A stretch of DNA of 64,000 nucleotides from Bacilli bacterium (GCA_900754115.1 CAAEBM010000057.1:73000-136999); one strand, 5' to 3'. Numbered from the stretch's first letter, positions 3,700 through 64,000 are shown. Program-made: numbers and translations. The notes: generated from the sequence alone by a model not told the origin.

Positions 3700-3725
3700 A
3701 AAAAGAGCAGATTACTCTTTTTTCA
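3700..3725. terminator. hairpin plus T-run overlapping the 3' end of the helicase gene
   Basis: AAAAAGAG-cagatta-CTCTTTTTT. This is a weak, short stem. Confidence 0.35.
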
Positions 3726-5927: not shown

Positions 5928-5940
5928 TCATAAAAGCCAC

Positions 5941-34431: not shown

Positions 34432-34466
34432 TAAAAAAAAACTTCATTTTAAAGTGAAGTTTTTTA
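34432..34466. terminator. bidirectional terminator between ligA and hflX
   Basis: AAAAAAAAACTTCATTTTAAAGTGAAGTTTTTT. Confidence 0.55.
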
Positions 34467-42126: not shown

Positions 42127-42152
42127 AAAAAGCATCGCAAGGATGCTTTTTT
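42127..42152. terminator. bidirectional terminator
   Basis: AAAAAAGCATC-gcaag-GATGCTTTTTT. Confidence 0.55.
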
Positions 42153-42156
42153 ATAT

Positions 42157-42687: not shown

Positions 42688-43349
42688 TTTTCATTCTCCT
42701 TATCAATAATGGTTAATAACTCCATTGGAGTTTCAATAAAATAATCAATATTTAACTTTTCTAACACTTCTTTTCCTCGAAATCCCCATTGCACTCCACA
42801 AACTCGCATTTTTGCATGATTGGCTGTTAACACATCCGTTTCACTATCACCAACAAATAATGCATCATTTTTGTTTACTTTTAATTGTCTTAATGCTTCA
42901 TAAACCATATCAGGGTGTGGCTTTTTTAAAAGATCGGGTCTTTCTCCAATCATGACTGAAATATAATTGCCAAACAAGGGAATGCACAATTCTTTTACTG
43001 CGGCATCAATTTTATTAGAAACAATCGCCATTTTTATTTTTCTTTCAGCCAAACTTTTTAATAAAGCTTCAATTTGGGGATAAGGTTTTGTATGATCTGC
43101 CTTATGTTTATCATAAAGGGGTAAGAAACGCTTGTAAACTTCTGATAAAATCTCTTTTTTATTTTCGGGTAAAGCTTTTTCTAATAAAACTTGAATCCCT
43201 TTACCTAAAAAAGAGCAAACTTCTTCTTTTGTTCTTAAAGGACAATTAAATTCATTTAAAACTTGATTTGTGCATAAATACAAATCTTGTAACGTATCTA
43301 GTAATGTCCCATCTAAATCAAAAATCACTGCCTGTATCATTTTTATCAC
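42684..43349 (-). CDS. HAD-superfamily hydrolase (phosphoglycolate phosphatase/PpaX-like)
   Basis: Motif I VIFDLDGTLLDT. Motif IV region FVGDSETD. Confidence 0.75.
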   Translation of the reverse strand: MIKMIQAVIFDLDGTLLDTLQDLYLCTNQVLNEFNCPLRTKEEVCSFLGKGIQVLLEKALPENKKEILSEVYKRFLPLYDKHKADHTKPYPQIEALLKSLAERKIKMAIVSNKIDAAVKELCIPLFGNYISVMIGERPDLLKKPHPDMVYEALRQLKVNKNDALFVGDSETDVLTANHAKMRVCGVQWGFRGKEVLEKLNIDYFIETPMELLTIIDKENEK

Positions 43350-43393
43350 CTGATATCATTATAGCAAAAAAAAAGCGTTTACAAAATAAAATA

Positions 43394-43415
43394 TAGAAAA
43401 GATGTATCTTTTCTA
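43394..43415. promoter_or_regulatory. perfect 10-2-10 inverted repeat in the divergent HAD/pckA intergenic region (candidate operator)
   Basis: TAGAAAAGAT-gt-ATCTTTTCTA. Confidence 0.3.
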
Positions 43416-43540
43416 TTTTAATTTAAAAACTACGAATTATAATTGTTTTTAAAAATGAAAAGTGCTAAAATAAATTTAGTTTTAGTTTACGAAGGTAAAC
43501 AAAAAAACAGTTTTCAATTTTAAAGGAGGAAAACCAAATT

Positions 43541-45172
43541 ATGGCTACAAAAAGCAATATGCCGATCGAAGAAATTGGCACAAAAAATGCAGTTTTATTT
43601 AGTAAAGTTAGAACGACGATTGAAACGATGTTTTACCGAAACAATGTCATTGAAGTCACTTCCATGAAACAAGCCTATGAACTTGCAAAAAATGCGCATG
43701 GAACGATTATCAGTGATTTAGAAGTGGCTCATGCAAAAGAATTAGAACTCGATGAAGGATCTAAAGTTTTAATCTTTAATGACGGCGCTATAACCGGACG
43801 ACAAGCTCGTCTAAGAAGATTAGTGGATGATACTAACGTAGAATCTTTTGCATCTTTATTAAGAGAAGTAGAATTTTCTTCTAAAGATAAAGTCATGTAT
43901 CACGCTCAAGTTTATGTAGGCCTTGCACCTGAATTTATGGTGAAAGCCCATTTACTTATTCCTCAAGGATACGAAAACAATCTTTATTCTTGGTTGATGA
44001 ATTTCCAAATTGTCAATGAAGAATACACACAAATGTATAAAAATTCAAAAGTCTATGATGAAGGAGATATTTTCATTTATTCTGATCCAGATTATTATCC
44101 TTCACAATATCCAGAAGGATTGGCTTTATTTGATAGCAAACACAATTGCGCATGTTTATTAGGAATGCGCTACTTTGGCGAACATAAAAAAGGCACTTTA
44201 ACGCTTGCTTGGTCTTTGGCTGCAAGACATGGATATACTGCTTGCCATGGCGGACAAAAAAGATTTAAATTAGACCATGATAAAACAAAAATCATCAGTG
44301 TATTTGGTCTTTCTGGTTCAGGAAAATCAACGATTACTTTATCAAACCATGGTGGAAAATTAAATACCACCGTTCTTCACGATGATGCTTTTATCATTTC
44401 AAATACCGATGGTTCTTCCATTTGCTTAGAACAATCTTATTTTGATAAAACACAAGATTATCCTTTGACTAATCCACAATCAAAATATTTTGTCACCATT
44501 CAAAATGTTGGTGCAACAAAAGATGATCAAGGGCGCATTGTTCCTGTAAATGAAGACATTCGTAACGGAAATGGTCGTACGGTAAAATCAAAATTTGCTA
44601 CAAGCAATCGGGAATACAAATTCAATGAAAAGACAGATGCAATTTTCTGGATTATGAAAGATAATACTTTGCCTCCAGTTGTAAAAGTAAATTCTCCTGC
44701 TTTGGCTTCTGTAATGGGTGCAACGCTTGCAACCAAACGTTCTTCAGCTGAATATATTAAAGGAGAAGATCCCAATAAATTAGTTATTGTTCCTTATGCT
44801 AATCCTTTCCGTTTATATGAATTAGCTAAAGATTATGAAAAATTTAAATCTTTATTTGCTGATATGGGAGTGGATTGTTATATTATCAATACTGGATTTT
44901 TCTTAGATAAAAAAGTCACTCCTCAAGTCACTTTAGGCCTTATTGAAGATATTGTTCTTGAAAAAGCACAATTTGTTCCTTTTGGACCATTTAATGATTT
45001 AGAGTACTTGCCAATTACAGGTTTTGAACCAGACTTTAAAGATCAAGATTACTTACAAAATGTAAAAGCAAGATTATTAGATCGGCTCAACTATGTCTCT
45101 GAATTAGATGAATTCAATCGTTTGCCAGAAGAAGCTTTACAAGCAATCAAAAAAGTCGCAGAAGAAATTTAA
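43541..45172 (+). CDS. pckA: phosphoenolpyruvate carboxykinase (ATP)
   Basis: Kinase-1a P-loop VFGLSGSGKSTITLS. LAWSLAARHGYTACHGG region. 543 aa. AAAGGAGG RBS. Confidence 0.85.
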   Translation: MATKSNMPIEEIGTKNAVLFSKVRTTIETMFYRNNVIEVTSMKQAYELAKNAHGTIISDLEVAHAKELELDEGSKVLIFNDGAITGRQARLRRLVDDTNVESFASLLREVEFSSKDKVMYHAQVYVGLAPEFMVKAHLLIPQGYENNLYSWLMNFQIVNEEYTQMYKNSKVYDEGDIFIYSDPDYYPSQYPEGLALFDSKHNCACLLGMRYFGEHKKGTLTLAWSLAARHGYTACHGGQKRFKLDHDKTKIISVFGLSGSGKSTITLSNHGGKLNTTVLHDDAFIISNTDGSSICLEQSYFDKTQDYPLTNPQSKYFVTIQNVGATKDDQGRIVPVNEDIRNGNGRTVKSKFATSNREYKFNEKTDAIFWIMKDNTLPPVVKVNSPALASVMGATLATKRSSAEYIKGEDPNKLVIVPYANPFRLYELAKDYEKFKSLFADMGVDCYIINTGFFLDKKVTPQVTLGLIEDIVLEKAQFVPFGPFNDLEYLPITGFEPDFKDQDYLQNVKARLLDRLNYVSELDEFNRLPEEALQAIKKVAEEI

Positions 45173-45191
45173 TCAAAAAGGAGAATAAAAG

Positions 45192-46574
45192 ATGGGTGTT
45201 AAAATTGTCGATACGGCTTTAAGAGATGGTTCTCAATCTCTTATTGCAACCCGTTTAACTACAAAAGAAATTTTATCATGTGTCGGCGAAATGGATAAAG
45301 CAGGATACTACGCTTTAGAAGTTTGGGGTGGAGCTACTTTTGATGCTTGTTTACGTTTTTTAAATGAAGATCCTTGGGAACGTTTACGAGAAATAAAAAA
45401 AGTATGCAAAAATACAAAATTACAAATGTTGTTTCGCGGACAAAATATTCTCGGTTATAAACATTATGCCGATGATATCGTTGAAAAATTTGTTCAAAAA
45501 TCATTAGAAAATGGGATAGATATTATTCGTGTTTTTGATGCATTAAATGATATTCGCAACTTAAAAAGTGCGGTTCAAGCCACAAAAAAATATAAAGGTC
45601 ATTGTCAAATTGCCCTCAGTTATACCACAAGTCCAGTCCACACCGTTGATTATTATGTAAAGTTAGCAAAAGAAGTGGAAGCAATGGGAGCAGATAGTCT
45701 ATGTATTAAAGATATGGCTGGTGTTTTATTGCCAAATGATGCTTATACCTTGATTAAAAAATTAAAAGCAAACACAAAATTGCCAATTGAGCTTCATTCT
45801 CATTGTACTGGTGGAATTTGTGAAATGACTTATCAAAAAGCCATTGAAGCAGGAGTCGATATTATTGACACTGCTTTATCTCCTCTTTCAGGAGGAACTA
45901 GCCAACCTTGCACAGAAGCATTTAATTACGCTTTAGCAAATACAAAATATGATCCAAAATTAAACGTTGAACACTTAAATGCTGCATCTGCAATACTTAC
46001 AAAAATTAAAGATCAATATGTTGCAAATGGAACTTTAAATCCTAAAGCATTATCGGTCAATCCTAACATTTTAAAATATCAAGTTCCAGGTGGAATGCTT
46101 TCTAATTTAATGAGTCAATTAAAAGCTCAAGGCGCAATGGATCGTTATGATGATGTTTTAAAAGAAGTTCCTATGGTTCGAAAAGATTTAGGATATCCTC
46201 CATTAGTCACTCCATTATCCCAAATGGTCGGTACACAAGCCGTTCTCAACATCATTACGGGTGAACGATATAAAATGGTTCCTAAAGAAATCAATGATTA
46301 TCTTCACGGATTATATGGAAAAGCACCTGCTAGCATTGATCCTACGATTTTACGTCAAATCATTAAAGATGATCCTGTCATCGATTATCGTCCAGCAGAT
46401 GATATTCCCCCACAATTTGAAAAATTAAAAGAGCAATACAAGGATTTGGCAAAATCGGATGAAGATGTCTTATCCATTGCTTTATTTGAACAAGTGGCAA
46501 TTCAATTTTTAAATCGTAAATATCATCCAGCTAGTCAAGATGAAGTCGTTGAATTCAATTTATGGATAGGGTAG
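45192..46574 (+). CDS. oadA: oxaloacetate decarboxylase alpha subunit (carboxyltransferase; biotinyl domain on a separate protein)
   Basis: N-terminus MGVKIVDTALRDGSQSLIATRLTTKE (pyruvate carboxyltransferase TIM barrel). Metal ligands HSHCTGG. Confidence 0.8.
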   Translation: MGVKIVDTALRDGSQSLIATRLTTKEILSCVGEMDKAGYYALEVWGGATFDACLRFLNEDPWERLREIKKVCKNTKLQMLFRGQNILGYKHYADDIVEKFVQKSLENGIDIIRVFDALNDIRNLKSAVQATKKYKGHCQIALSYTTSPVHTVDYYVKLAKEVEAMGADSLCIKDMAGVLLPNDAYTLIKKLKANTKLPIELHSHCTGGICEMTYQKAIEAGVDIIDTALSPLSGGTSQPCTEAFNYALANTKYDPKLNVEHLNAASAILTKIKDQYVANGTLNPKALSVNPNILKYQVPGGMLSNLMSQLKAQGAMDRYDDVLKEVPMVRKDLGYPPLVTPLSQMVGTQAVLNIITGERYKMVPKEINDYLHGLYGKAPASIDPTILRQIIKDDPVIDYRPADDIPPQFEKLKEQYKDLAKSDEDVLSIALFEQVAIQFLNRKYHPASQDEVVEFNLWIG

Positions 46575-46913
46575 GTGAAGAAAATGATTTTTTCAATTGT
46601 AGAAATAAGCGATAAACCAGGACAAGCCTTTTTAGATGGTTTGATTCCTTCTTTAATTTGTATTCTTATCGTTTTTGCCATATTAATTCTCATTTATTTC
46701 ATTTTTGCTTTATTAAATAAAGTGAAGGCTTTAGATGTGAAAAAAGAAGAACCTTTAGCAACTTCATCTCATAATGAAGATGCTAAAGCAGCAATTACTT
46801 TACAAGATTTACAAGATGAAGATATGATGGTTGCGGTTTTAATCGCTTCTATTGACTATCAACAAGAAGTGAAAAAAGATGTTCGATTGGTACAAGTAAA
46901 AAGACTAAACTAG
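46575..46913 (+). CDS. oadG: oxaloacetate decarboxylase gamma-like small membrane anchor
   Basis: A single N-terminal TM helix followed by a charged tail. Position between alpha and BCCP genes. Confidence 0.55.
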   Translation: MKKMIFSIVEISDKPGQAFLDGLIPSLICILIVFAILILIYFIFALLNKVKALDVKKEEPLATSSHNEDAKAAITLQDLQDEDMMVAVLIASIDYQQEVKKDVRLVQVKRLN

Positions 46914-46924
46914 GAGGAAAAAAG

Positions 46925-47275
46925 ATGAAAATATATAAAGTAAAAGTGAATGGAAAAGTTTATGAAGTAGAATTAGATACCGTAACTGAAAACAATAAAT
47001 CCATTCAAACAGAAACAAAAAAAGAAGAAAAAATTGAAAACGCACCTACTACCAATGCTGAAGGTACACCTGTATTGTCTCCAATGCAAGGAACAATTCT
47101 TCGCGTTGATGTAGCAGTGGGTGACCATGTAAAAAAAGGTCAAATCTTAATGATTTTAGAAGCGATGAAATTAGAAAATGAAATTTTAGCTGCTCAAGAT
47201 GGTATAGTCAAAGAGATAAAAGTTACGAAAGGACAAACAGTAAATAGCAAACAAGTATTGCTAATTCTTGGGTAA
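46925..47275 (+). CDS. biotin carboxyl carrier protein (biotinyl/lipoyl domain)
   Basis: Biotinylation motif ILEAMKLENEI. 116 aa. Confidence 0.8.
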   Translation: MKIYKVKVNGKVYEVELDTVTENNKSIQTETKKEEKIENAPTTNAEGTPVLSPMQGTILRVDVAVGDHVKKGQILMILEAMKLENEILAAQDGIVKEIKVTKGQTVNSKQVLLILG

Positions 47276-47281
47276 TTGTCT

Positions 47282-48637
47282 ATGCTTGAATTAATAGAGG
47301 AATTTATCAAAAGCACAGGAATTGCCGAGTTTTTCACCAGTGGAGGTTGGAAAAATTTGGTGATGATCTTAATTGCTTTGCTACTATTGTATTTTGCGAT
47401 ATTTAAACAAGCAGAACCTTATTTACTCATTCCTATTTCCTTTGGCGTATTATTGGTCAACTTACCCCTCAGTGGAATTTTTGAAAAATCTACAGATGTC
47501 CTTTATTCTGTTGAGCAATTGGCCACAAGTACTGGAATTGGTTTAGAGAATGCAAAACAGTTTTTTACCTCTCTGGGGTTAGATATAGAGCAATCGTATA
47601 AACTTTCTCAAATTATTGAATTAGGAAAAGGAAATTTAGAGGCAATTAATGCTTTAACTTTAAATGATTTAGAACTCAAAAATTTAGTTGACTTTTTAAA
47701 TCAAGAAACACAATATTCTGGATTACTTGGCTATTTGTATTATGGAGTTCAGACAGGAATTTATCCTTGCCTCATCTTTTTAGGCATTGGAGCAACCACT
47801 GACTTTGGACCATTAATTTCTAATCCAAAGAGTATGATTTTAGGAGCTGCTGCACAAATTGGTATTTTCATTACTTTTTTAGGAGCATTATTATTAGGCT
47901 TTACTCCTCAAGAAGCCTCTTCCATTGGAATTATAGGGGGGGCAGATGGTCCTACAGCCATTTTAGTTACCAAAACCTTAGCTCCACATTTACTTTCTTC
48001 CATTTCTATTGCTGCTTATTCTTATATGGCATTGGTACCATTTATTCAACCGCCGATTATTCGTCTTTTGACAACCAAAAAAGAACGTTTAATCAAAATG
48101 GAAGAACCAACAGAAGTTTCAAAAACAAAAAGAATTTTATTCCCCATTATTGTCACAGTTGTCGTTGTCTTATTAATTCCTTCTTGTGCACCTTTAATTG
48201 GATGCCTCATGCTTGGAAATTTAATCAAAGAAACTGGTGTTGTTCCAAAACTAACGGAAGCAGCAGGAAATACAATTCTTTATTTAGTCACCATTTTACT
48301 AGGTTTATGTGTTGGAGCAACTGCAAATGCTGAAACCTTCTTATCTTTGAATACCATTAAAATCTTTGCTTTAGGTATCTTTGCTTTTGCAACTGCTACG
48401 ATGGGTGGCGTTTTAATTGGAAAGTTAATGTGCAAACTAACCAAAGGAAAAATCAATCCAATGATTGGAGCTGCTGGTGTCAGCGCAGTTCCAATGGCTG
48501 CACGAGTAGTTCATAAAGAAGGAGTAAAAGAAGATCCTAGCAACTTCTTACTCATGCATGCAATGGGTCCAAATGTAGCCGGAGTAATTGGTAGTGCGAT
48601 TGCTGCTGGTTTATTAATGTTACTATTTGGTGCATAA
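47282..48637 (+). CDS. oadB: Na+-transporting oxaloacetate decarboxylase beta subunit
   Basis: Polytopic membrane protein. GGADGPTAILV and MAARVV motifs of the OadB/GcdB/MmdB family. Confidence 0.8.
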   Translation: MLELIEEFIKSTGIAEFFTSGGWKNLVMILIALLLLYFAIFKQAEPYLLIPISFGVLLVNLPLSGIFEKSTDVLYSVEQLATSTGIGLENAKQFFTSLGLDIEQSYKLSQIIELGKGNLEAINALTLNDLELKNLVDFLNQETQYSGLLGYLYYGVQTGIYPCLIFLGIGATTDFGPLISNPKSMILGAAAQIGIFITFLGALLLGFTPQEASSIGIIGGADGPTAILVTKTLAPHLLSSISIAAYSYMALVPFIQPPIIRLLTTKKERLIKMEEPTEVSKTKRILFPIIVTVVVVLLIPSCAPLIGCLMLGNLIKETGVVPKLTEAAGNTILYLVTILLGLCVGATANAETFLSLNTIKIFALGIFAFATATMGGVLIGKLMCKLTKGKINPMIGAAGVSAVPMAARVVHKEGVKEDPSNFLLMHAMGPNVAGVIGSAIAAGLLMLLFGA

Positions 48638-48649
48638 TATGGTATAATT

Positions 48650-48680
48650 ATCGTGTTCGCAAGAACACGATTTTTATTTT
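48650..48680 (+). terminator. rho-independent terminator after oadB
   Basis: ATCGTGTTC-gcaa-GAACACGAT followed by TTTTTATTTT. Confidence 0.6.
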
Positions 48681-48693
48681 AGAAGGGATAGTT

Positions 48694-49407
48694 ATGAAAC
48701 GGATTTATTTTGATACGCTTGATTCAACCAATGATTATTGTAAAAGAAACGCTTCACTTTTACCTTCTTTTTGTGTGGTTTATACAACTCATCAAACTAA
48801 AGGAAAAGGTAGGAATCAAAGAAGTTGGGTCAGTGAACCTTTTTTAAATTTATCCCTTTCTTTATTTATCAAAAAACCAATCAATCATCCAGAATATTTA
48901 AGCATTTTAACAGCTTTAGCCGTTGTATCCACGTTAAAGGCCTTAGACATTCAACCACAAATTAAATGGCCGAATGATATTTTAATTGAAAAGAAAAAGG
49001 TTTGTGGAATTTTGCTTGAGGCTTTAAATCAAGGTAAAAAAACGGATTATATTATTGGAGTGGGAATAAATATAAACACCACTTCATTTCCTGATGAATT
49101 AAAAAAGAAAGCAACTTCTATTGCAATTTTTTTAAATCAAACCATTTCAATCAAAAAAGTATTGCGCATTTTTTTAAGAAATTGGAAAAAACTTTTTGCT
49201 ACTTTTGAAAAAAAATCTGACTTTTACATGCAAGAATATAAAAAATATTCTTGTGTTTTGCATCAAAAAATTCAATTTGAATACAATCGACAACTTTGTG
49301 AAGGCATTGTAGTTGACATTTTAAAAGATGGCTCTTTACAAATTGAAATGGAAAATAAAAAAATCACCATCAATTATGGTGAAATTTCTTTACAAAATTT
49401 TTATTGA
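48694..49407 (+). CDS. birA: biotin--protein ligase (group I BirA, no N-terminal HTH domain)
   Basis: KGKGRNQRSW biotin-binding loop. 237 aa. Confidence 0.8.
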   Translation: MKRIYFDTLDSTNDYCKRNASLLPSFCVVYTTHQTKGKGRNQRSWVSEPFLNLSLSLFIKKPINHPEYLSILTALAVVSTLKALDIQPQIKWPNDILIEKKKVCGILLEALNQGKKTDYIIGVGININTTSFPDELKKKATSIAIFLNQTISIKKVLRIFLRNWKKLFATFEKKSDFYMQEYKKYSCVLHQKIQFEYNRQLCEGIVVDILKDGSLQIEMENKKITINYGEISLQNFY

Positions 49408-49985
49408 GGATTTTTCGTTAAAGGTAAAATCTTTTTTAATCGTTGCCCAATTAATCCTGCTAAAATGCATTTTGCGATATCAAGTAAAATAAAAGGAGCA
49501 ATAACGAGTTGAAAAACTTTACCAAAAGAATAATCTAATTTCATATGGACAATAAAAATGAGATAAGCATAAATAAATCCGCAAATATAATCAATAATTA
49601 ACCCAATAAAATTGGCAATAATGGCACTAACATAAGGGTTTACTTTTATTTTTTGCAATAAACCATCAAATAGTTTTACAAATGGACAAAGAAGCAAAAA
49701 TCCAATCATAAATCCAAAGGAAGGTTGATAAACATAACTTAATCCGCCTCCCATACTAAAAATCGGAAGACCAATAAGACCTAAAAAAAGATACAAAAAG
49801 ATAATGAGCATGGCATTCCAAACCGTTGAAATTTGAGCGATTAAAAAGACAATAAATAGTTGCATTGTAAAAGAAATCGCTCCTAAAGGAAATTTAATAA
49901 AGGTAAAAATAATTAATAATGCTAATAATAATGCACTTTGAATTAGTTGTTGTGTTTTTACTCTTTTCATCGTCTTATCCTTCAT
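49401..49985 (-). CDS. bioY: biotin transporter BioY (ECF S component)
   Basis: 194-aa membrane protein with 5-6 TM helices. Convergent with and overlapping birA. Confidence 0.65.
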   Translation of the reverse strand: MKDKTMKRVKTQQLIQSALLLALLIIFTFIKFPLGAISFTMQLFIVFLIAQISTVWNAMLIIFLYLFLGLIGLPIFSMGGGLSYVYQPSFGFMIGFLLLCPFVKLFDGLLQKIKVNPYVSAIIANFIGLIIDYICGFIYAYLIFIVHMKLDYSFGKVFQLVIAPFILLDIAKCILAGLIGQRLKKILPLTKNPQ

Positions 49986-56528: not shown

Positions 56529-57215
56529 TTATATAGAATAATAGGTTGCCCATTTTCTTTTTATTTTAGATTTATCAATAACTTTAAATGATGCTCCCAG
56601 TATTCCAAATAAATAAACAGTCACTGCACATACTTTATTTTTATCATCTATGTCATTAACTACTTCCATTAATTCTTCATCATTTAGATGAATATGAGTT
56701 AATTCATGAAAATATTTCTTTTTTCGGTAATAAATAATTAATGTATATTCAACATATTCTTCAACAATACTTATCTTCATTGAACCAAGTAGCCAGTCAT
56801 ACCCATAGATGGTTTCTGTTAACGATCCTTTTGTAATTTTTTTAAAAATATTTTGTAATTTTCTAGTTCGATCTCGATACATAAAAAACTGCTTTGGTTT
56901 GCCATTTCCATCTTTATTTATGCATACAAATGTCCATTCCCATTTTTTATTTACTACAACAAAATTTTGTATAGACATTTCATTTTCAAAAAAAGAAAAA
57001 TTTGCATCATAAGATTTTGTTTCTTGGTCTTTGTCTAGACAAAGACATATTGCATTCTGTTGATTTACTTTTTTAAATTCGTTTATGGCATCTTCATTGA
57101 CATAATAATCTAATTCATTTTTAGTCAAAAATAAATCTTCCAAAGAAAAATTATTTATTTTATTCATACAAAAAAACGTTTTTAGCCATTTTTTTTCAAA
57201 ATCTTTTTTATTCAT
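56529..57215 (-). CDS. hypothetical cytoplasmic protein (228 aa)
   Basis: Complete ORF in an AT-rich accessory region. No recognisable motif. Confidence 0.4.
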   Translation of the reverse strand: MNKKDFEKKWLKTFFCMNKINNFSLEDLFLTKNELDYYVNEDAINEFKKVNQQNAICLCLDKDQETKSYDANFSFFENEMSIQNFVVVNKKWEWTFVCINKDGNGKPKQFFMYRDRTRKLQNIFKKITKGSLTETIYGYDWLLGSMKISIVEEYVEYTLIIYYRKKKYFHELTHIHLNDEELMEVVNDIDDKNKVCAVTVYLFGILGASFKVIDKSKIKRKWATYYSI

Positions 57216-57260
57216 AAAACGCTCCTTTTTAAAGAATGATAATTATTAAATGATGAAACT

Positions 57261-58595
57261 TTACACTCTATAAAATTCGGAAACCAATAGTATATTTTCT
57301 TTAATCTTATATGCTAAACACAAATAATTTGTTTTACTAGTATATTTTAAATCAAAAAAATGATTGGTATCCAAATTATAGATTGTATAATAATCGAATT
57401 TTTTTGATTCATTACTAAAAGTTATAGGAATAAAATCTTTTTCTTGATTGCTCAAAGTTGGTTTAAAATTAGAAACATCAATCAATCTATCATTATTGAA
57501 ATAAATAATGCTTTCAGATTTTAATGCATTATGATATAAAACTGTCGTTTTTTGTTCATATTCTTTTTGAATAATTGTTGCTTCACTAGGGATATCAATT
57601 TGAATTTTTTGTTCGATAAAATCAATATAAGTTGCATTGGTATTATATTCATCTGCTAAAAAAAAGCTAAAACTTCCATAAATCAATAATGCGATGGTAA
57701 AGATACTTCCCACAATGATATTGCTTTTTACTTTATATTTTTCTATATTTTTTATTCCATAAATTATTGCTGCTAAAGGGATAGGGATAAAAAGGTATAA
57801 AATCCATAAGTTTTTAGTCATATAGTAAGATATTTCAAGATTGTATTGATAACGAACATTTACAATTGTTCCAATAATGATGATAGATAAGCAAATAGAT
57901 AAAATGGAAAGCACATTCAATAATACGGTCCATCGTCCCTTTTGACTAGAATAATTAGTCGTTTCCATTAAAAAATTAAAACCTTCAAGTGCAGTATTAT
58001 TTTTTATTGATTCACAAATCTTTTTAACTAAAGGAATGGATGTTTTTTCGTACACTTCTTCATCAAAAGTTTGATTTTGAATCATATTGAAAATCTTATT
58101 TGCCATGTATTGTTGTTTTTTATAAATGGAAAGTTTTAAATTTTGTAATTTATGAAGAAAGAAGATTGCTTGTTGAAGATCATGGTTAGCAATTGCAAAT
58201 AAAAACCGATAATAATATAATGTTTTAACTTTTTTTAGACCTTTGTTTTCATTCATTAAAACTATTGCTTTTTCTTCTTGTGATGAAATCATATAAATCA
58301 AGATGAGTCGCTGAATATTAAAATAATATTCTTGCAAACATAAACTATTTTGCAAAGCATGATTGTAATAAACCTCTAAATCATCATATTTCTTTTCATC
58401 AAAGAGTGGTTTTGCTTTTTTAGATACTATTTCGCATTTAATTAAATAATACAAGATAAAAAATAAAGTTAATGAAAAAATTCCGATGATAAAAATATAT
58501 ATGTTTGTAAAGACAATTGCTAAAATACTTAATATAACCAAAAGTATTAGATAAATCATATTTAATAATTTATTTTTCATTTTTTTACATCCCAT
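57261..58595 (-). CDS. hypothetical polytopic membrane protein (444 aa)
   Basis: Two N-terminal TM helices, internal TM helices and soluble regions. No recognisable motif. Confidence 0.4.
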   Translation of the reverse strand: MGCKKMKNKLLNMIYLILLVILSILAIVFTNIYIFIIGIFSLTLFFILYYLIKCEIVSKKAKPLFDEKKYDDLEVYYNHALQNSLCLQEYYFNIQRLILIYMISSQEEKAIVLMNENKGLKKVKTLYYYRFLFAIANHDLQQAIFFLHKLQNLKLSIYKKQQYMANKIFNMIQNQTFDEEVYEKTSIPLVKKICESIKNNTALEGFNFLMETTNYSSQKGRWTVLLNVLSILSICLSIIIIGTIVNVRYQYNLEISYYMTKNLWILYLFIPIPLAAIIYGIKNIEKYKVKSNIIVGSIFTIALLIYGSFSFFLADEYNTNATYIDFIEQKIQIDIPSEATIIQKEYEQKTTVLYHNALKSESIIYFNNDRLIDVSNFKPTLSNQEKDFIPITFSNESKKFDYYTIYNLDTNHFFDLKYTSKTNYLCLAYKIKENILLVSEFYRV

Positions 58596-58665
58596 TTCTC
58601 AATATATATACCATTTTTATGGAAGTTTTTCAAGATTTTGAAATTATCACAAGTTTAATAAAGAA

Positions 58666-59145
58666 TTAATTTTCCTTTAAATATAAATATGTATAAATTT
58701 CAGGTTCTACATTTGTAATATGAACACTACAATAATCGCCTACGTCAGCCCATTCTTCTCTTCCAGTTGTAAATGGCTTTAGCCAAGTGCCATTTTCATC
58801 TTTATATGCAATCAGTGTTCCCGTTGCTCCATTGAATGCATCTTTAAAATTTATAAAATCAAAAGTATATTTATTAGAATCTTTATCAATGACATAAAAT
58901 TCCAAACTATAAAATTTATCAGCAACTAAATCATGTATAACATTTTTACCATTGGAACTTTTAAAAGAATCTTTTGTTATTTCTGTAATGTTTAAAAAAC
59001 AGGATTGTGTATTATCGTAATCATTATATCCTGTGAATAAGCCCGGAACAAAATAATTGATTCGTTTGCTGAGAGAAGTGAAATGGCAAGAACATAATAA
59101 TAAAATTAATGGAAATAAACTAGCTAGCCTAATTTTTCTATTCAT
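58666..59145 (-). CDS. hypothetical lipoprotein (159 aa)
   Basis: MNRKIRLASLFPLILLLCSC lipobox. Confidence 0.45.
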   Translation of the reverse strand: MNRKIRLASLFPLILLLCSCHFTSLSKRINYFVPGLFTGYNDYDNTQSCFLNITEITKDSFKSSNGKNVIHDLVADKFYSLEFYVIDKDSNKYTFDFINFKDAFNGATGTLIAYKDENGTWLKPFTTGREEWADVGDYCSVHITNVEPEIYTYLYLKEN

Positions 59146-59368
59146 ATTTAATTCTCCCTTTTAATTGATTAAACTGAATATTAAATATAATGATTATAAA
59201 ATTCTTTATTTCAATTAAATTATTTCACATGAAGTAATTTTTGTCAATTTTAGGTTTTTTCTTTAAAGATTAGCAGTTTTTATGTTTCCATAGTAAAATA
59301 TTAACTTGTTTTTACAAATTTTGTTCGCTTGTATTAAACAAAACTATTAAAATTTTTAATAATAAAAA

Positions 59369-59411
59369 GGTAAGCTTACAATATGAGTGTAAACTTACCT
59401 AATTTTATTTT
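59369..59411. repeat. hairpin element copy 1 (GGTAAGCTTAC...GTAAACTTACC plus T-run)
   Basis: Imperfect inverted repeat carrying the same single mismatch as copy 2. T-rich 3' side. Confidence 0.5.
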
Positions 59412-59621
59412 TAAAAACTGCTTACTATTTTACTTTTTAAAATTGCTACTAATAATATACAAAGTATTATTTGTTATTAGGAAAAGATTTTAATTAATAT
59501 AAAATCTTTGGCATATTTAACTTTCATGTGCATGTAAATCCATTTCTCTCTATGATGATTTTAGTCTTAATAATCTATCGTTTTTATAGCATTTACGAGT
59601 GACTAATTGATTATAAATTTT

Positions 59622-60077
59622 TTATTTTTCAATAATATAGGCTGTATCAAATAATATTTGATTGTTACTCAACTTCTTTAAGAATTCTTTTAATTTTATA
59701 ACACCTTTAATTTTTTGATTTTTTTGATAATCTAATCTTATCATCAAACAAACTTTATTAATCGGTGATTCATTCAAATAGAATTCTAAAAGATTTTGTA
59801 TGAAATCTATGTTGACTTTTGTTTCATTAACAACAACATAAGACTTATGTCTATTATAGTATAAATCGAAAAATTCATTTGAGTATACTCCTAAATCCCT
59901 TGCCTTTGGCGTTATTTGGTACCACATGCCCCTAATTGAAGATAATATTTCCCATTCAAAATAATAGCAATGAGGATTTTTTTTACATTCTACATCAATA
60001 AAATCATTAGCAAACTCTTTATCTTTTTTTACTTTTTGCTCAATGCATATTAAATTAATATCAGATATAACGGTCAT
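59622..60077 (-). CDS. hypothetical cytoplasmic protein (151 aa)
   Basis: Complete ORF with GAAGGAG RBS. Flanked by the two hairpin-element copies. Confidence 0.45.
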   Translation of the reverse strand: MTVISDINLICIEQKVKKDKEFANDFIDVECKKNPHCYYFEWEILSSIRGMWYQITPKARDLGVYSNEFFDLYYNRHKSYVVVNETKVNIDFIQNLLEFYLNESPINKVCLMIRLDYQKNQKIKGVIKLKEFLKKLSNNQILFDTAYIIEK

Positions 60078-60208
60078 TTATAATCCTAACTCCTTCTCTA
60101 TTAGACTTAAATTTAAAAATATTGTTTTCTATTTTTATTTTATTATATCATAAATATAATATAAAGTTTTAAATTTAGCTTGCACGGATATATCTCCAAA
60201 ATAATGAA

Positions 60209-60250
60209 GGTAAGCTTATTCCTTCCTCGAATAAACTTACCCTATTTTGT
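60209..60250. repeat. hairpin element copy 2 (GGTAAGCTTATTC...GAATAAACTTACC plus T-run)
   Basis: Shares AAGGTAAGCTTA and AAACTTACC arms with copy 1, and the same G/A mismatch in the stem. Confidence 0.5.
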
Positions 60251-60603
60251 TGTATTTTTATTGTGAATCCTTATTTTTATACAAACAGTCGTCAACGTAT
60301 CGCCCATTTAATTTAATAAATTTTTTTCTTTATTTTTCTGTATATTTCCTGATATATTGATTTACATTTTTCATTTTTTTCAAAATGTCAAGAATCTAGA
60401 TATTAATAAATATAATTTAAGTGTATTAAAACTACGCTCAAATTGTAAATCATCAATAAAAAAGAACTACTTTCAAACATCTTTTTAATAGATAAATAAA
60501 AAAGCAAGAAGAAATAAACACACATTAAAAAAGACCATCTATTGTAATAATAGACAGCCATTTTGTATTTGAAAAATTTTTACATTTTCTCAAATTTGAT
60601 AAA

Positions 60604-60623
60604 AGCGACCGATAGCGACCGAT
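60604..60623. repeat. perfect tandem duplication of a 10-mer (AGCGACCGAT x2)
   Basis: GC-rich 20-bp tandem repeat inside AT-rich intergenic DNA. Confidence 0.5.
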
Positions 60624-60754
60624 TATTTTTTCTTATAACTAATTGAAGGTCCTGAACCGATTTGTTTATAAGTAAATTACAATATAATTCTAATTGAACT
60701 AATAATAGAAACACAAATAGAATTATTCCTCTTTTTGAACAACTCCAATAACTA

Positions 60755-60820: not shown

Positions 60821-60910
60821 TGGCGGAACAGGTGGGACTCGAACCCACGCACCAGTTGCCCAGCCTATATCCTTAGCAGGGATACCTCTTCACCACTTGA
60901 GTACTGTTCC
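60821..60910 (-). tRNA. tRNA-Ser (anticodon GCU), class II with long variable arm, CCA encoded
   Basis: Minus-strand sequence GGAACAG-TA-CTCAAGTGGTGAAGAG-G-TATCC-CTGCTAA-GGATA-long variable arm-GTGGG-TTCGAGT-CCCAC-CTGTTCC-GCCA. Cloverleaf folds; anticodon loop CU-GCU-AA. Confidence 0.85.
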
Positions 60911-61014
60911 AAGTTTGCTTTTGTATCTTACCATAAATTAAAAAATAATGCAATATTGTAGTGATAAAACATTTAATTCATGTTAGAATAGTAATGGTTT
61001 TGGAGGATACTTCA

Positions 61015-62412
61015 ATGGAACAAATAAAAGAAAAGAAAAAGAAAAATTTTTTAGATCGTTATTTTAAAATCACAGAAAAAGGATCAACCATTGGTAAAGA
61101 ATTGTTAGGTGGTTTAATTGTTTTTTTAGCAATGCTTTACATTTTACCTGTCAATACAAATATTTTAAGTGATACAGGAATGAGCAGTGGTGCTGTTTTT
61201 GCTGCAACAGCCATATGTAGTGCAATTTGTACGATTTTTATGGGAGTCTTTTCTAAATATCCTGTAGCTTTAAGTGCTGGGATGGGAATGAATGCTTTTA
61301 TTGCTTATACTGTATGTGGAACACTTGGTTATACGTGGGGAGAATCTCTAACATTAATCTTTTTTGCCGGAGTATTATTTTTTATCTTAACTTTAACTCC
61401 ATTAAGAGAAAAAATTATAAATGCTATTCCTCAAAGTTTAAAATACGCTATTAGTGCAGGACTAGGAGCATTCATCTGTTTTGTTGGTTTAAAAATGGGA
61501 GGAATTGTTGCTTCTTCAGAAAGTACATTAGTTGAACTTGGAGATTTAAGTAATCCTACCGTTTTATTAGGATTATTCGGAATTATTTTAGTTTTAGTTT
61601 TACTCACTTGCAAAAATGCTTTAATAAAAAAATTAGCAATTGTCATTGCAATGGTTTCCGTAGCAATTATCGGTTTGATTTTAGGACTTTGCAATGTGCC
61701 AGGAATGCCAAGTTTTTCTAATACGAATTTAGGAAGTGTTAGTGAAATTAAAGATACTTTTGGACAATGTTTCAATGCAAAGAATTTAAAAGTACTCGGA
61801 GATTTTAAATCATATGCTATAATGTTTTCATTGATTTTTGTCAATTTATTTGATACAACCGCTACTTTACTTGCTGTTGGAAAAGAAGCTGGAATGTTAA
61901 ATGAAAAAGGTGAATTAGTAGATGGGAAAAAAGCCATGTTAGCTGATGCAGGCGGAGCTTTTATTTGTGGGATTTTAGGTACATCTACTGTTACAAGTTT
62001 TGCTGAAAGTACTATTGGAGTAGAAAGTGGAGCACGCACAGGTTTATCTGCCACATTTACTGGACTTTTATTTGCATTAACAATTTTAATTTTCCCTGCT
62101 TTTTCAATTTTTATGCCCATAAATGGATTGACACCCATTACTTCTTTAGCTTTAGTTGCTGTTGGAGCAATGATGTTTTCAAATTTAAAACAATTAGAAT
62201 GGGAAAATAAAATCATTGTATTTGCTTCTTTTATTACCGTTATTATGATGTTATTGACATATTCTGTTTCCGATGGTTTAGGACTTGGATTAATCACTTA
62301 TAGTTTAATGATGATTTTTGCTGGAAAAGGAAAAGAAGTTCATCCATTTGTTTATGGTATTTCTGCATTCTTTGTATTAAACTATGTTTTAAGTACTACT
62401 GTATTTAAGTAA
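61015..62412 (+). CDS. AzgA/PbuG-family purine (guanine/hypoxanthine) permease, NCS2-related
   Basis: 12-TM transporter. N-terminus MEQIKEKKKKNFLDRYFKITEKGSTIGKELLGGLIVFLAMLYILPVN is typical of AzgA-like permeases. GGAGGA RBS. Confidence 0.7.
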   Translation: MEQIKEKKKKNFLDRYFKITEKGSTIGKELLGGLIVFLAMLYILPVNTNILSDTGMSSGAVFAATAICSAICTIFMGVFSKYPVALSAGMGMNAFIAYTVCGTLGYTWGESLTLIFFAGVLFFILTLTPLREKIINAIPQSLKYAISAGLGAFICFVGLKMGGIVASSESTLVELGDLSNPTVLLGLFGIILVLVLLTCKNALIKKLAIVIAMVSVAIIGLILGLCNVPGMPSFSNTNLGSVSEIKDTFGQCFNAKNLKVLGDFKSYAIMFSLIFVNLFDTTATLLAVGKEAGMLNEKGELVDGKKAMLADAGGAFICGILGTSTVTSFAESTIGVESGARTGLSATFTGLLFALTILIFPAFSIFMPINGLTPITSLALVAVGAMMFSNLKQLEWENKIIVFASFITVIMMLLTYSVSDGLGLGLITYSLMMIFAGKGKEVHPFVYGISAFFVLNYVLSTTVFK

Positions 62413-62425
62413 AAGAGGGATATTT

Positions 62426-63031
62426 ATGAAAAAGAAATATTTATCATTTTCATTACTTGCTTCATTTTTATTACTTTTAGGTGGATGTGATTCGTCTAAA
62501 GAAGAAATTTGTGACATGGAAAAAGTTCAGTATGTTGAACAACTTATTGCTGATTTACCCACACCATCTACAGATAATGAAGTAGTTTCAACCATTTTTG
62601 ATGCAAAAGAAGCATATGACGACTTAAATAAAAAAGAAAAAGATATGGTGGAAAACTACACATCCCTTGAATCTTGTATTGAAGAAATTTACTCATTTGT
62701 CACCGAAAATGGAAGTTATTCAACAAAATATGAAGTCGCTTTGTATATCTTTTTATATGATGATTTACCTAGTAATTATATTACAAAATCGGAAGCAGAA
62801 GCTTTAGGTTGGAACGGTGGAAGTTTGTGGAATTATGCTGAAGGTAAAAGCATTGGTGGCGATCGTTTTTATAACCGAGAAGGATTATTACCAAATGGTG
62901 TTTATTATGAATGCGATATCGGTTATAAAGGAGAAAATTCTAGAAATGCCTTTAGAATTGTTTATAGTTTAATCAGTGATACTGTTTATTATACTCATGA
63001 CCATTATAGTAGCTTTGAACAACTTTATTAA
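62426..63031 (+). CDS. lipoprotein with a barnase-family (guanyl-specific microbial RNase) catalytic domain
   Basis: Lipobox LLLLGGC. The C-terminal 105 aa align with barnase: LPSNYITKSEAEALGW / GKSIGGDRFYNREGLLP / RNAFRIVYS...YYTHDHYSSF against LPDNYITKSEAQALGW / GKSIGGDIFSNREGKLP / RNSDRILYSSDWLIYKTTDHYQTF. The catalytic Lys, Glu, Arg and His are conserved. Confidence 0.8.
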   Translation: MKKKYLSFSLLASFLLLLGGCDSSKEEICDMEKVQYVEQLIADLPTPSTDNEVVSTIFDAKEAYDDLNKKEKDMVENYTSLESCIEEIYSFVTENGSYSTKYEVALYIFLYDDLPSNYITKSEAEALGWNGGSLWNYAEGKSIGGDRFYNREGLLPNGVYYECDIGYKGENSRNAFRIVYSLISDTVYYTHDHYSSFEQLY

Positions 63032-63051
63032 ATTAAAAAGGAGGAACAAAA

Positions 63052-63960
63052 ATGAGTAAAATTTTTGTGGTAGGCAGTATTAATGTCGATTATGTCATGG
63101 AAATTTCTCATTTACCTCAATTAGGAGAAACACTTCCTGGAACTTCTTTTTTGACAAATTTTGGAGGAAAAGGAGCCAATCAAGCAGTTGCTTTAGCAAA
63201 GCAAGAAGAAGACGTCTATTTCATTGCTAATGTTGGAAATGACTCAATAGGACAAGAAGCGATTGAAAATTTAAATCAATACGGCGTTCATACTGAATTT
63301 ATTCAAAAAATAGATAATCAAACCACAGGGGCAGCACTGATTTTAGTAGAAAATCATAATAATCGCATTTTATTACACGCAGGAGCTAATCAAAAAATGC
63401 AACAGAACCAAATTTTAGAAGCATTTAAATTAGCTAATCCTGAGGATTATCTTTTAGTGCAATTAGAAATTAATATGGATATGGTTTATTATGCAATCCA
63501 AGAAGCAAAGAAAAGAAAAATGCATGTAGTCATGAATCCTGCTCCTGCACAAAGTATTGCTGACAAAATACTTGATTTAATCGATATTTTAATTGTAAAT
63601 GAAATTGAATGCAAAATGTTAACTGGGTATGATTATACTCAAGAAAATGAACTCAATGCTTTTTTAAAAAATCATTCCATTTCTATTTTTATTGTAACAT
63701 TAGGCGAAAAAGGAGCGCATGTATTTACTTTAAACAATAAATACCAATTCGATGCACACCTTGTTCATGTAAAGGATACTACTGCAGCAGGAGATACTTT
63801 TATTGGTGCTTTCTTATCCGAATGGATACATAGTAATGATTTGAAAAAAAGTGCTCAATATGCAATTATAGCTAGTGCTTTAAGTTGCATGACATTGGGA
63901 GCACAAAAAAGTATTAAAAATCGTCAAGAAATTCAAAAATATATTTTAACTCATCTTTAA
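63052..63960 (+). CDS. rbsK: ribokinase (PfkB family)
   Basis: MSKIFVVGSINVDYV, NFGGKGANQAVA, DTTAAGDTFIGAF (anion hole and catalytic Asp). AAGGAGG RBS. Confidence 0.85.
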   Translation: MSKIFVVGSINVDYVMEISHLPQLGETLPGTSFLTNFGGKGANQAVALAKQEEDVYFIANVGNDSIGQEAIENLNQYGVHTEFIQKIDNQTTGAALILVENHNNRILLHAGANQKMQQNQILEAFKLANPEDYLLVQLEINMDMVYYAIQEAKKRKMHVVMNPAPAQSIADKILDLIDILIVNEIECKMLTGYDYTQENELNAFLKNHSISIFIVTLGEKGAHVFTLNNKYQFDAHLVHVKDTTAAGDTFIGAFLSEWIHSNDLKKSAQYAIIASALSCMTLGAQKSIKNRQEIQKYILTHL

Positions 63961-64000
63961 CTTGCTATTTTCATTTTTTATGATATAGTTAAGTTACGTG

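Follow-up and report, generated by a model that had tools for sequence, protein, structure and literature searches.

A candidate surface RNA-foraging and purine-salvage operon with a barnase-type RNase lipoprotein in uncultured gut Bacilli

Results

A compact three-gene unit with a single conserved promoter

In a 64-kb stretch of DNA from a Bacilli bacterium (hereafter the window), a purine permease, a barnase-type RNase lipoprotein and a ribokinase are encoded by three tightly packed, co-directional genes on the + strand. With somewhat better than even confidence, we read this locus as an operon for RNA foraging at the cell surface and purine salvage, comparable to the nuclease-transporter operons of mycoplasmas. 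The coordinates of its features are listed in Table 1. The permease and RNase genes are 13 bp apart (62413-62425) and the RNase and ribokinase genes 20 bp apart (63032-63051), and each gene carries its own ribosome-binding site, that of the RNase being AAGAGGG at 62413-62419. An earlier note on this DNA had described three co-directional ORFs with these gaps and with a ribosome-binding site each, and all of this was confirmed at the positions it gave. It had also placed the module next to a tRNA-Ser and an AT-rich region, which agrees with the tRNA-Ser(GCT) upstream of the permease and with a GC content of 23-25% at 56-60 kb versus ~31% elsewhere in the window.

Table 1. Features of the permease-RNase-ribokinase locus (positions in the window)
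Feature	Position	Strand	Remarks
tRNA-Ser(GCT)	60821..60910	-	ARAGORN; Rfam tRNA 59.5 bits; divergent from permease
Putative tRNA-Ser promoter	60925..60953	-	TTGCAT -35 (60953-60948), 17-nt spacer, TAAGAT -10 (60930-60925)
Putative operon promoter	60961..60989	+	GTGATA -35 (60961-60966), extended -10 TGtTAGAAT (60981-60989)
AzgA/AZG-family (COG2252) NCS2 purine-base permease, 465 aa	61015..62412	+	RBS GGAGGA 61002-61007
Predicted lipoprotein signal peptide of RNase (MKKKYLSFSLLASFLLLLGG followed by C)	62426..62488	+	Lipobox Cys21 codon 62486-62488; read from sequence
Acidic helical module, residues ~25-96, four helices, pI 4.05	62498..62713	+	AF2 model
Barnase-fold (N1/T1 family) endoribonuclease domain, residues 97-201, putative guanyl-preferring	62714..63031	+	
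Ribokinase (PfkB family), 302 aa	63052..63960	+	RBS GGAGGA 63040-63045
Promoter-like TTGCTA-16-TATAGT plus first base of tRNA-Val(GAC)	63962..64000	+	Promoter at L001 11537-11564

The putative operon promoter was returned by a promoter scan as a match with the TG of an extended -10 element (positions 8536-8564 of locus L001, equal to window 60961-60989), and an alignment of the region upstream of the permease shows its TGnTAnAAT block conserved in six of six lineages. It stands back-to-back with a TTGCAT-17-TAAGAT element that would serve as the promoter of tRNA-Ser, whose ATGCAA block is invariant in the same six lineages. No internal terminator was seen within the three-gene unit. Downstream of the ribokinase, tRNA-Val(GAC) occupies L001 11575-11650 (window 64000-64075) and thus runs past the window end, and a terminator hairpin, AAAGCCCTAAAA...TTTTAGGGCTTTTTT, follows ~25 nt after it at about L001 11674-11711. 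Because the gaps are tiny, one promoter is conserved and no terminator occurs before the end of tRNA-Val, the permease, RNase and ribokinase genes are very likely co-transcribed. The operon leader is only ~20 nt, which leaves no room for a riboswitch. A purine riboswitch or other RNA element 5' of the permease was accordingly rejected, the Rfam gathering scan of the whole window having returned tRNA only, and reading of the intergenic region upstream of the permease found no other purine-responsive element.

The permease-RNase pair recurs in one small clade

The permease-RNase pair, positioned behind a divergent tRNA-Ser(GCT), was found again in six lineages of uncultured gut Bacilli, with 5-16 bp between permease and RNase and 15-82 bp between RNase and the next gene. 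Flanking genes are rearranged or different among these lineages, and RNase identity falls to as low as 52%. Given its recurrence in six lineages with differing flanking genes, the arrangement is more than chance. The third gene is a ribokinase in four of the six and BioY in the remaining two. The unit directly adjoins an oxaloacetate decarboxylase operon in locus L005, and BioY and a biotin-ligase-like gene lie between the two in loci L088 and L008; in the window, the unit is ~11.6 kb from a BioY gene that flanks the oxaloacetate decarboxylase operon, in inverted orientation.

Neither a permease nor a ribokinase was adjacent to the RNase in any of ~156 other RNase-family loci examined, mostly from Clostridia, and a single one of them has a PfkB homologue, ~4 kb away on the opposite strand. 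The permease-RNase linkage is confined to one small clade and, as no such neighbours occur in these ~156 loci, it points to one evolutionary event. A 74%-identical permease orthologue from a common gut species (L092/93) has the same tRNA-Ser upstream and no RNase, and stands alone. The tRNA-Ser(GCT) also precedes the permease in L005, L008, L088 and L101/102 as well as in this RNase-less locus, and the tRNA-Ser/permease adjacency is ancestral to the whole group. Both the replacement of ribokinase by BioY in two of six lineages and the working of a permease orthologue without an RNase count against a salvage reading.

The permease resembles adenine transporters

The permease is recorded in public data as a 465-aa protein starting at ATG 61015. 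The earlier note had started it at GTG 60961, which cannot be kept because this GTG lies inside the -35 hexamer GTGATA of the extended -10 promoter. The protein matches Pfam Xan_ur_permease (PF00860, 7.8e-27) over model positions 2-384 of 389, and its family-level homology to AzgA/AZG (COG2252) NCS2 purine permeases spans the full 14-TM core. The closest solved structures are the plant adenine/guanine permeases AZG1 and AZG2 (AZG1, 2.2e-46 in the PDB); NCBIfam held no model matching the permease or the RNase. The type of permease was compared using four characterised E. coli paralogues as references. In this comparison, AdeQ and AdeP gave 253 and 242 bits at 34% identity (AdeQ, 4.7e-83), against 170 and 159 bits at 26-27% identity for GhxP and GhxQ. 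At the columns that separate adenine from guanine types, the permease has 56 adenine-type, 25 guanine-type and 80 residues of neither type. It thus resembles the adenine transporters of E. coli more closely than the guanine/hypoxanthine transporters, and it may still carry guanine or hypoxanthine. Of the earlier assignment to an AzgA/PbuG-type guanine/hypoxanthine permease, the purine-base family stands and the guanine/hypoxanthine type does not. With it falls the proposal that a guanyl-specific RNase fits a guanine/hypoxanthine importer, since the permease scores higher against AdeP/AdeQ than against GhxP/GhxQ.

A predicted lipoprotein with a barnase-type domain and a helical module

Lipoprotein signals were judged by a basic n-region, a hydrophobic h-region and a lipobox of the form [LVI][ASTVIG][GAS]C. 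Read from the sequence, the N-terminus of the RNase consists of the n-region MKKKY, the hydrophobic h-region LSFSLLASFLLLL and the lipobox LGG-C21. Cys21 does not vary among the seven clade members, all of which retain a lipobox (variants LGAC, IVSC, LSSC, VTSC and LGGC), in support of the secreted lipoprotein that the earlier note had proposed; by its signal, the RNase would be located at the cell surface. Residues 1-21 have pLDDT <50 in the AF2 model.

The RNase domain was recognised by Pfam Ribonuclease (PF00545, 4.9e-15, 56 bits with a cut-off of 24) and matched barnase/binase at 1e-20 (barnase, 1.7e-20). Foldseek superposed its model on barnase with a TM score of 0.86-0.91 and an rmsd of 1.1-1.6 Å. 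In the alignment, K121, D146, E162, R173, R177 and H193 are the counterparts of barnase K27, D54, E73, R83, R87 and H102; all six are invariant in the clade, and K121, E162, R173, R177 and H193 are invariant or nearly so in 31-76 homologues. The guanine-recognition loop FYNREG (148-153) aligns with FSNREG of barnase (S57-E60), with N150 and E152 invariant. The barnase homology claimed earlier is therefore well founded, the motifs quoted for it, including RIVYS and HDHY, being present. From these residues the RNase looks active, and by analogy with barnase we infer a preference for guanyl sites. Identity across the clade is 52-72%, with active site and lipobox intact, and the catalytic domain is 57-67% identical to enzymes of Clostridia, Lachnospiraceae and Treponema, compared with 46-50% to Bacillus barnase/binase.

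Between signal and catalytic domain lies an acidic helical module modelled with a pLDDT of ~98, its helices spanning residues 31-42, 51-65, 69-74 and 78-91. Of ~170 RNase loci, those of the permease-linked clade are the only ones with this module. A phmmer search against 1.8 billion representatives found it as 5-20 tandem copies in proteins of 1-3 kaa, with Flg_new or LTD domains in some of these proteins, and no Pfam family matched the module. Because this repeat is common to giant surface proteins, the module is probably a stalk or spacer; an inhibitory role is less likely. Its presence matches the lack of barstar without exception, but its use as a dedicated barstar substitute is disfavoured because the repeat is a generic building block of huge surface proteins.

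Barstar is directly downstream of the RNase in 120 of the 145 other loci with enough downstream sequence (~83%). In the window and its flanks, tblastn with B. amyloliquefaciens barstar returned nothing. An HMM was then built from the barstar ORFs of related loci (62 loci with a barstar match). It gave no match with E <9 in the 64-kb window or in L001-L008, and none in L100-L102 either, while recovering barstar in 66 of 80 control loci. We nevertheless make less of the missing neighbour as an anomaly, since ~17% of the other RNase loci also have no adjacent barstar, and the barnase and binase genes are themselves normally unlinked to the inhibitor gene (PMC5021464).

The third gene encodes a ribokinase

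The kinase matched PfkB in Pfam (1.4e-52) and the ribokinase model TIGR02152 with 291.4 bits, under the equivalog cut-off of 299.65, the next family scoring <100 bits. All 15 of its PDB matches are ribokinases (V. cholerae RbsK, 3.7e-55), and the ribokinase of the earlier note is thereby upheld. Its motifs GSINVD (NxD), GGKGANQ, LVQLE (Glu), NEIE (NExE) and AAGDTF align with RbsK of V. cholerae and S. aureus. These are the ribose-binding and catalytic motifs, which in the E. coli RbsK structures (1RKD) comprise N14/D16, G41-N46, E143, N187/E190 and D255.

Discussion

In the salvage reading, the three genes would be driven from one simple extended -10 promoter. The RNase, a metal-independent enzyme, would be exported by Sec, lipidated at Cys21 and tethered to the outer side of the cell membrane through its acidic helical stalk. 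There it would cleave extracellular RNA, behind G if it acts as barnase does, and leave short oligonucleotides with a 3'-phosphate and 3'-GMP. Bases would be freed by phosphatases and nucleosidases, whether the organism's own and encoded elsewhere or supplied by the gut community, and adenine, guanine or hypoxanthine would enter through the permease, a proton-coupled AzgA/AZG-type importer of purine bases. The ribokinase would yield ribose-5-phosphate and, by way of PRPP synthetase, PRPP for the phosphoribosyltransferases that turn imported bases into nucleotides. The link to the ribokinase is indirect, because ribose is not a substrate that a base permease brings in. The sequences establish what the genes encode, the intact active sites, the lipobox, the layout of the operon and the conserved permease-RNase pair, whereas we infer the surface location, the guanyl preference, the steps between cleavage and import, the connection to PRPP and any reliance of the organism on salvage.

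Barnase-type cleavage leaves oligonucleotides ending in 3'-phosphate, plus 3'-GMP. Getting from such products to free base and ribose would take further proteins: a nucleosidase, a transporter for ribose, and either a 3'-nucleotidase or a cyclic phosphodiesterase. No 3'-nucleotidase, 2',3'-cyclic phosphodiesterase, nucleosidase or ribose transporter was present among the annotated ORFs of the window (at least 100 aa) or the genes within 10 kb downstream. The coherent pathway from RNA to base plus ribose that the earlier note had drawn is therefore not coherent as written, and its suggested search for a 3'-nucleotidase or nucleosidase to complete the pathway gave none in this DNA. The pur genes were likewise absent from the 64-kb window and the 10 kb downstream, a small part of the genome. 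What endures of that account are the gene identities, the lipoprotein signal and the permease-RNase link, and what does not are the guanine type and the coherence of the pathway. Two precedents bear on a nutritional role. In bacilli, starvation for phosphate or nitrogen induces secreted guanyl-preferring RNases, which are seen as nutrient-acquisition enzymes (PMC7604891; PMC5021464), and mycoplasma membrane nucleases share operons with transporters for the uptake of nucleotide precursors (PMC12115388; PMC11729948).

The RNase might instead serve to scavenge phosphate or nitrogen, the role ascribed to binase and balifase in Bacillus, with the permease only supplying a promoter, and the permease and ribokinase serving a housekeeping salvage independent of the RNase. 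Bacillus guanyl-preferring RNases are indeed members of the PhoP regulon that react to starvation for phosphate or nitrogen (PMC7604891; PMC5021464), a sister species has the permease orthologue working on its own, and the third gene swaps between PfkB and BioY. We nonetheless consider this explanation unlikely: no Pho-type regulation is visible, the sole promoter being a plain extended -10 common to all lineages, phosphate release would also need a phosphatase, none of which is encoded here, and the short permease-RNase junction has been kept in six lineages despite rearrangement of the flanks. That last observation also weighs on the idea that the grouping has no function, the RNase gene having come horizontally from Clostridia, entered a site between two tRNA genes that was permissive and well expressed, and then been co-inherited. 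The affinity of the catalytic domain to Clostridia, Lachnospiraceae and Treponema enzymes rather than to Bacillus barnase/binase speaks for it. So do the tRNA-Ser and tRNA-Val that bracket the locus, with strain-variable or AT-rich DNA beyond, and the restriction of the link to a single clade. However, the retention of the RNase at 52-72% identity with intact active site and lipobox, tightly coupled through rearrangements, argues for selection on the unit, and the surface stalk module gained by the clade suggests adaptation over passive carriage. Passive carriage thus seems rather improbable to us.

An antagonistic or defensive effector, for instance one that poisons competitors or breaks down foreign RNA, is the least plausible of the alternatives, and we give it very little credence. 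Barnase-like domains are reportedly found in polymorphic toxins, where they would pair with barstar-like immunity, and 120 of 145 other loci, with barstar right behind the RNase, are laid out like a toxin with its immunity gene. Here, however, the enzyme would be a lipoprotein on the producer's own membrane with no delivery route into a target cell, the locus shows neither a pre-toxin domain nor a neighbouring gene for immunity or a secretion system, and the adjoining genes are metabolic. As to how the salvage operon may have come about, the clade could have drawn its barnase gene from those that are linked to barstar in Clostridia, shed the linked inhibitor, added a lipobox and the stalk of giant surface proteins, and placed the gene behind the permease, self-protection then resting on lipoprotein export or on the acidic N-terminal module as an intramolecular shield, and not on barstar. 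This history is doubtful; if true, it would make the locus the first operon to forage RNA at the cell surface by means of a barnase.

Should the operon work in the proposed way, low-GC gut Bacilli that are still uncultured would gain purines from gut-lumen RNA by coupling a tethered barnase-type enzyme directly to the import of bases and the supply of PRPP. Such a route to nutrients has until now been documented chiefly in mycoplasmas, with unrelated nucleases. The operon would then also offer a natural case of a barnase homologue kept on its producer's surface without a linked barstar, which bears on the tolerance of such toxic enzymes. For culture work, the locus points to RNA or purine bases as additions to the growth medium of these Bacilli. 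A literature search did not find barnase, permease and salvage treated together. The advance is contextual, not mechanistic, because each of the parts comes from a well-known family and is ordinary within it.

The permease belongs to the same COG2252 family as PbuG/PbuO of B. subtilis and AdeP/AdeQ/GhxP/GhxQ of E. coli. Firmicute genes of this family are typically under the control of a purine riboswitch or PurR, unlike the window permease, with its ~20-nt leader and no riboswitch found by Rfam. The RNase shares its fold with barnase (B. amyloliquefaciens), binase (B. pumilus) and balifase (B. licheniformis) at 46-50% identity, with catalytic residues and guanine loop kept. As with these enzymes, it would be exported by a signal peptide and is presumed to have a nutritional role (PMC7604891), and, as for barnase and binase, the inhibitor gene is not adjacent (PMC5021464). 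It differs from them in being a predicted lipoprotein and not freely secreted, in its 70-residue helical module, in its acidic catalytic domain (pI 4.7 versus 8.9 for barnase), and in its operon with a purine permease and ribokinase, where Pho-type regulation is not evident. Its nearest relatives are the barnase-barstar pairs of gut Clostridia, Lachnospiraceae and Treponema (57-67% identity), among which an N-terminal signal peptide and a variable linker are likewise common; these differ in having barstar within ~10-100 bp in 83% of loci, no permease or PfkB flank and no helical module. The MnuA and Mhp379-type lipoprotein nucleases of mycoplasmas, low-GC relatives of the Bacilli, follow the logic that the window would share, of a surface nuclease with a co-expressed importer (PMC12115388; PMC11729948). 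The mycoplasma enzymes are of the SNase or EEP type and sugar-nonspecific and work with an ABC system, whereas the window combines a metal-independent barnase fold, acting on RNA only, with an NCS2 base permease, and only the window has a ribokinase attached.

Organization and transcription of the predicted operon

The three-gene cluster described in the earlier note was confirmed from the ORF list and the sequence: at the right end of the window, three co-directional ORFs are separated by gaps of 13 and 20 bp, and each is preceded by its own Shine–Dalgarno sequence. The permease start listed for the ORF, GTG 60961, had to be corrected, as it sits within the −35 hexamer of the putative operon promoter; translation in fact begins at ATG 61015, eight bases past GGAGGA. 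The spacer of 104 bp between tRNA-Ser and the permease holds two putative promoters back-to-back, and alignment shows that the extended −10 promoter of the operon is kept in six lineages. The leader is ~20 nt long, an Rfam scan of the entire window found no riboswitch, and the intergenic gaps within the operon are too short for signals. Judged from this arrangement, permease, RNase and ribokinase are very likely expressed as a single transcript, which possibly reads on into tRNA-Val.

Features of the operon and of other loci (window positions unless marked L001, a fetched locus that runs past the window end)
Feature	Strand	Position	Detail
Unannotated ORF		1571-3637	688 aa; adjoins Shango system
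Shango system, complete	-	3712-8690	anti-phage
SngC	-	3712-5940	DEAD helicase, 1.8e-264
SngB	-	5941-7248	BrxD-like ATPase, 2.4e-184
SngA	-	7245-8690	TerB_N/TerB_C, 2.7e-57
LigD	-	8784-11141	785 aa
HflX-like GTPase, two ORFs	-	34464-35102; 35215-35715	112 nt apart
EPSP-synthase-like to BioY stretch		40852-49985
PEPCK/oxaloacetate-decarboxylase operon		43.5-48.6 kb
AT-rich block		56529-60714	23-25% GC vs ~31%
Putative tRNA-Ser promoter	-		TTGCAT-17-TAAGAT; conserved (alignment A4)
Putative operon promoter	+	-35 GTGATA 60961-66; extended -10 TGtTAGAAT 60981-89	promoter scan; L001 8536-8564
GGAGGA		61002-61007	before permease ATG
RNase	+	62426-63031	201 aa
Helical module of RNase		62498-62713	residues ~25-96
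Ribokinase	+	63052-63960
Promoter-like TTGCTA-16-TATAGT		63962-63989	directly 3' of ribokinase stop
tRNA-Val(GAC)		starts 64000; L001 11575-11650
Terminator, clear hairpin-plus-T		L001 ~11674-11711	3' of tRNA-Val

The module adjoins a tRNA-Ser and an AT-rich region, as had been noted, with tRNA-Ser divergent upstream and the AT-rich block (56.5-60.7 kb) just beyond it. This block carries four minus-strand orphan ORFs of 228, 444 (multi-pass membrane), 159 (lipobox LLLCSC) and 151 aa, for which no Pfam hit passed the threshold and PHROG and PADLOC gave no match. Because it is kept among strains of the window species but missing from other lineages, the block probably represents a tRNA-associated island. 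Past the window end (L001 ~12100 onward), downstream of tRNA-Val, the same-species strains L001 and L002 are wholly different, one having HD_4, acetyltransferase and ferritin genes and the other small orphan ORFs and a P-type ATPase; this is a second variable region beside a tRNA. Elsewhere in the window, a LigD with all three domains (phosphoesterase, ATP ligase and primase-polymerase) adjoins the Shango defence island. An HflX-like GTPase is seemingly split, one ORF holding the N-terminal and middle domains and the other the GTPase domain, which may be due to a frameshift, pseudogenization or misassembly.

Properties of the three products

The RNase carries an N-terminal lipoprotein signal, MKKKYLSFSLLASFLLLLGG followed by C21, then a 70-residue acidic helical module and a barnase domain (PF00545; barnase/binase at 1e-20). 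Its AF2 model (pLDDT 90, pTM 0.81) matches barnase in Foldseek with a TM of 0.86-0.91 and an rmsd of 1.1-1.6 Å. In the alignment, K121, D146, E162, R173, R177 and H193 correspond to barnase K27, D54, E73, R83, R87 and H102, and FYNREG to the guanine loop FSNREG. The description as a secreted barnase-homologue lipoprotein stands, with RNase activity predicted from the aligned catalytic residues. Some relatives have two tandem barnase domains per protein, e.g. P0008, P0010-P0036 and Candidatus Limiplasma (loci sets L009-L087 and L103-L179).

Among all the RNase loci compared, the helical module (AF2 pLDDT ~98, pI 4.05) is exclusive to the permease-linked clade. Scanning 1.8 billion representatives in full with HMMER revealed it as a repeat of ~55 residues, matched by 242 representative proteins at E<=1e-3 and arrayed in 5-20 tandem copies within surface proteins 1,000-3,000 residues long (P0279-P0427 among them), some of which also carry Listeria-Bacteroides repeats or lamin-tail domains. 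No Pfam family covers the repeat, which is uncatalogued. The module is probably a stalk keeping the enzyme away from the membrane; less probably, this acidic segment might have a shielding role.

The third gene was rightly called ribokinase: TIGR02152 is its best family by far (291 bits, 8 bits below cut-off; next family <100 bits), every one of the 15 solved relatives is a ribokinase, and the motifs for ribose binding and catalysis are preserved.

The permease (465 aa, NCS2, PF00860 at 7.8e-27) belongs to the AzgA/AZG subfamily, and its sole solved relatives are the plant adenine/guanine permeases AZG1/AZG2 (2e-46). The family part of the proposed AzgA/PbuG-type guanine/hypoxanthine assignment thus holds, but in a cross-phylum comparison the protein is nearer E. 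coli AdeQ/AdeP (253/242 bits) than GhxP/GhxQ (170/159 bits), with 56 adenine-type against 25 guanine-type matches at diagnostic columns. B. subtilis PbuG is a hypoxanthine/guanine carrier, yet has adenine-like motifs; the cross-phylum E. coli scores therefore do not reverse the specificity to adenine. The suggested match between guanyl-specific cutting and a guanine importer is unsupported, as bits and diagnostic columns favor the adenine type.

Conservation and limits of the permease–RNase link

At least 22 public contigs (up to 799 kb) carry this very RNase, each with the same three genes.

Lineages with the permease–RNase pair (P numbers are protein handles; identity to the window proteins)
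Lineage	RNase	Permease	Kinase	Gene order
P0002 species	70%	90%	67%	permease-RNase-PfkB
P0004	63%			permease-RNase-PfkB
P0007	64%	73%	50%	permease-RNase-PfkB
P0009	54%		none	permease-RNase-BioY
Rabbit-gut "uncultured Bacilli" MAG	52%	74%	none	permease-RNase-BioY

The permease–RNase junction measures 5-16 bp in all lineages, and a divergent tRNA-Ser(GCT) was found in every lineage whose upstream DNA was covered. Flanks vary: at locus L005 the unit directly abuts the PEPCK/oxaloacetate-decarboxylase operon, at L088 and L008 the two are separated by BioY and a biotin-ligase-like gene, and in the window the unit is ~11.6 kb from the BioY flanking that operon, and inverted. As the junction is tight throughout while flanks and third gene (PfkB or BioY) vary, the core pair is retained through rearrangement and the third gene is exchangeable. 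One window stretch comprises an EPSP-synthase-like gene, PEPCK, genes for Na+-oxaloacetate decarboxylase (the alpha and beta subunits were identified, with two small ORFs between them), a biotin ligase-like gene and BioY; in three other lineages the unit directly adjoins this stretch or lies close to it.

The link has limits. In a very common human-gut species, a 74% identical permease lies behind the same tRNA-Ser without RNase or kinase, and around more distant orthologues of the permease the genes are unrelated. Reference genomes and metagenomes supplied 156 further RNase-family loci, most of them from Clostridia, Lachnospiraceae, Oscillospiraceae and Treponema. In none does the RNase adjoin a permease or ribokinase gene; at one locus a PfkB homologue lies ~4 kb off on the opposite strand. 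Barstar lies directly downstream in 65/75 and 55/70 loci with enough downstream sequence, and no barstar was found near the RNase of the permease-linked clade, in the 64 kb window or any flank. This is less odd given that an adjacent barstar is also missing from ~17% of the other loci and that Bacillus barnase and binase genes are unlinked to their inhibitor, the balifase-YrdF operon being described as the exception (PMC5021464).

Functional interpretation

Barnase-type enzymes yield oligonucleotides with 3'-phosphate ends and 3'-GMP (PMC7604891). Turning such products into free base and ribose would call for a 3'-nucleotidase or cyclic phosphodiesterase together with a nucleosidase and a ribose importer, none of which was found among the annotated window ORFs or genes within 10 kb downstream. 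The coherent RNA-to-base-plus-ribose pathway proposed earlier thus has gaps. In standard salvage, ribokinase forms ribose-5-phosphate, which leads to the PRPP that purine phosphoribosyltransferases use to fix bases. A more economical link would be that ribokinase supplies ribose-5-phosphate for PRPP, so that imported purine bases could be fixed.

With modest confidence, we consider a surface RNA-foraging and purine-salvage operon the best explanation of the locus. The RNase might instead scavenge phosphate or nitrogen with the permease as an incidental neighbour, and the permease does occur without the RNase; set beside a pair retained across lineages, we regard this as unlikely. Slightly more doubtful is a functionally meaningless insertion inherited between two tRNA genes, as the tight junction is kept amid rearranged flanks. 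An antagonistic effector, lacking a nearby barstar and being lipid-anchored by prediction, is highly improbable.

Each protein of the proposed foraging and salvage operon is an ordinary member of its family, and no description of the lipobox, stalk and barnase architecture or of the operon context was found in the searchable literature. In this reading the locus shares the logic of mycoplasma lipoprotein-nuclease/transporter operons (PMC12115388; PMC11729948), but here a barnase-fold RNase is combined with an NCS2 base permease.
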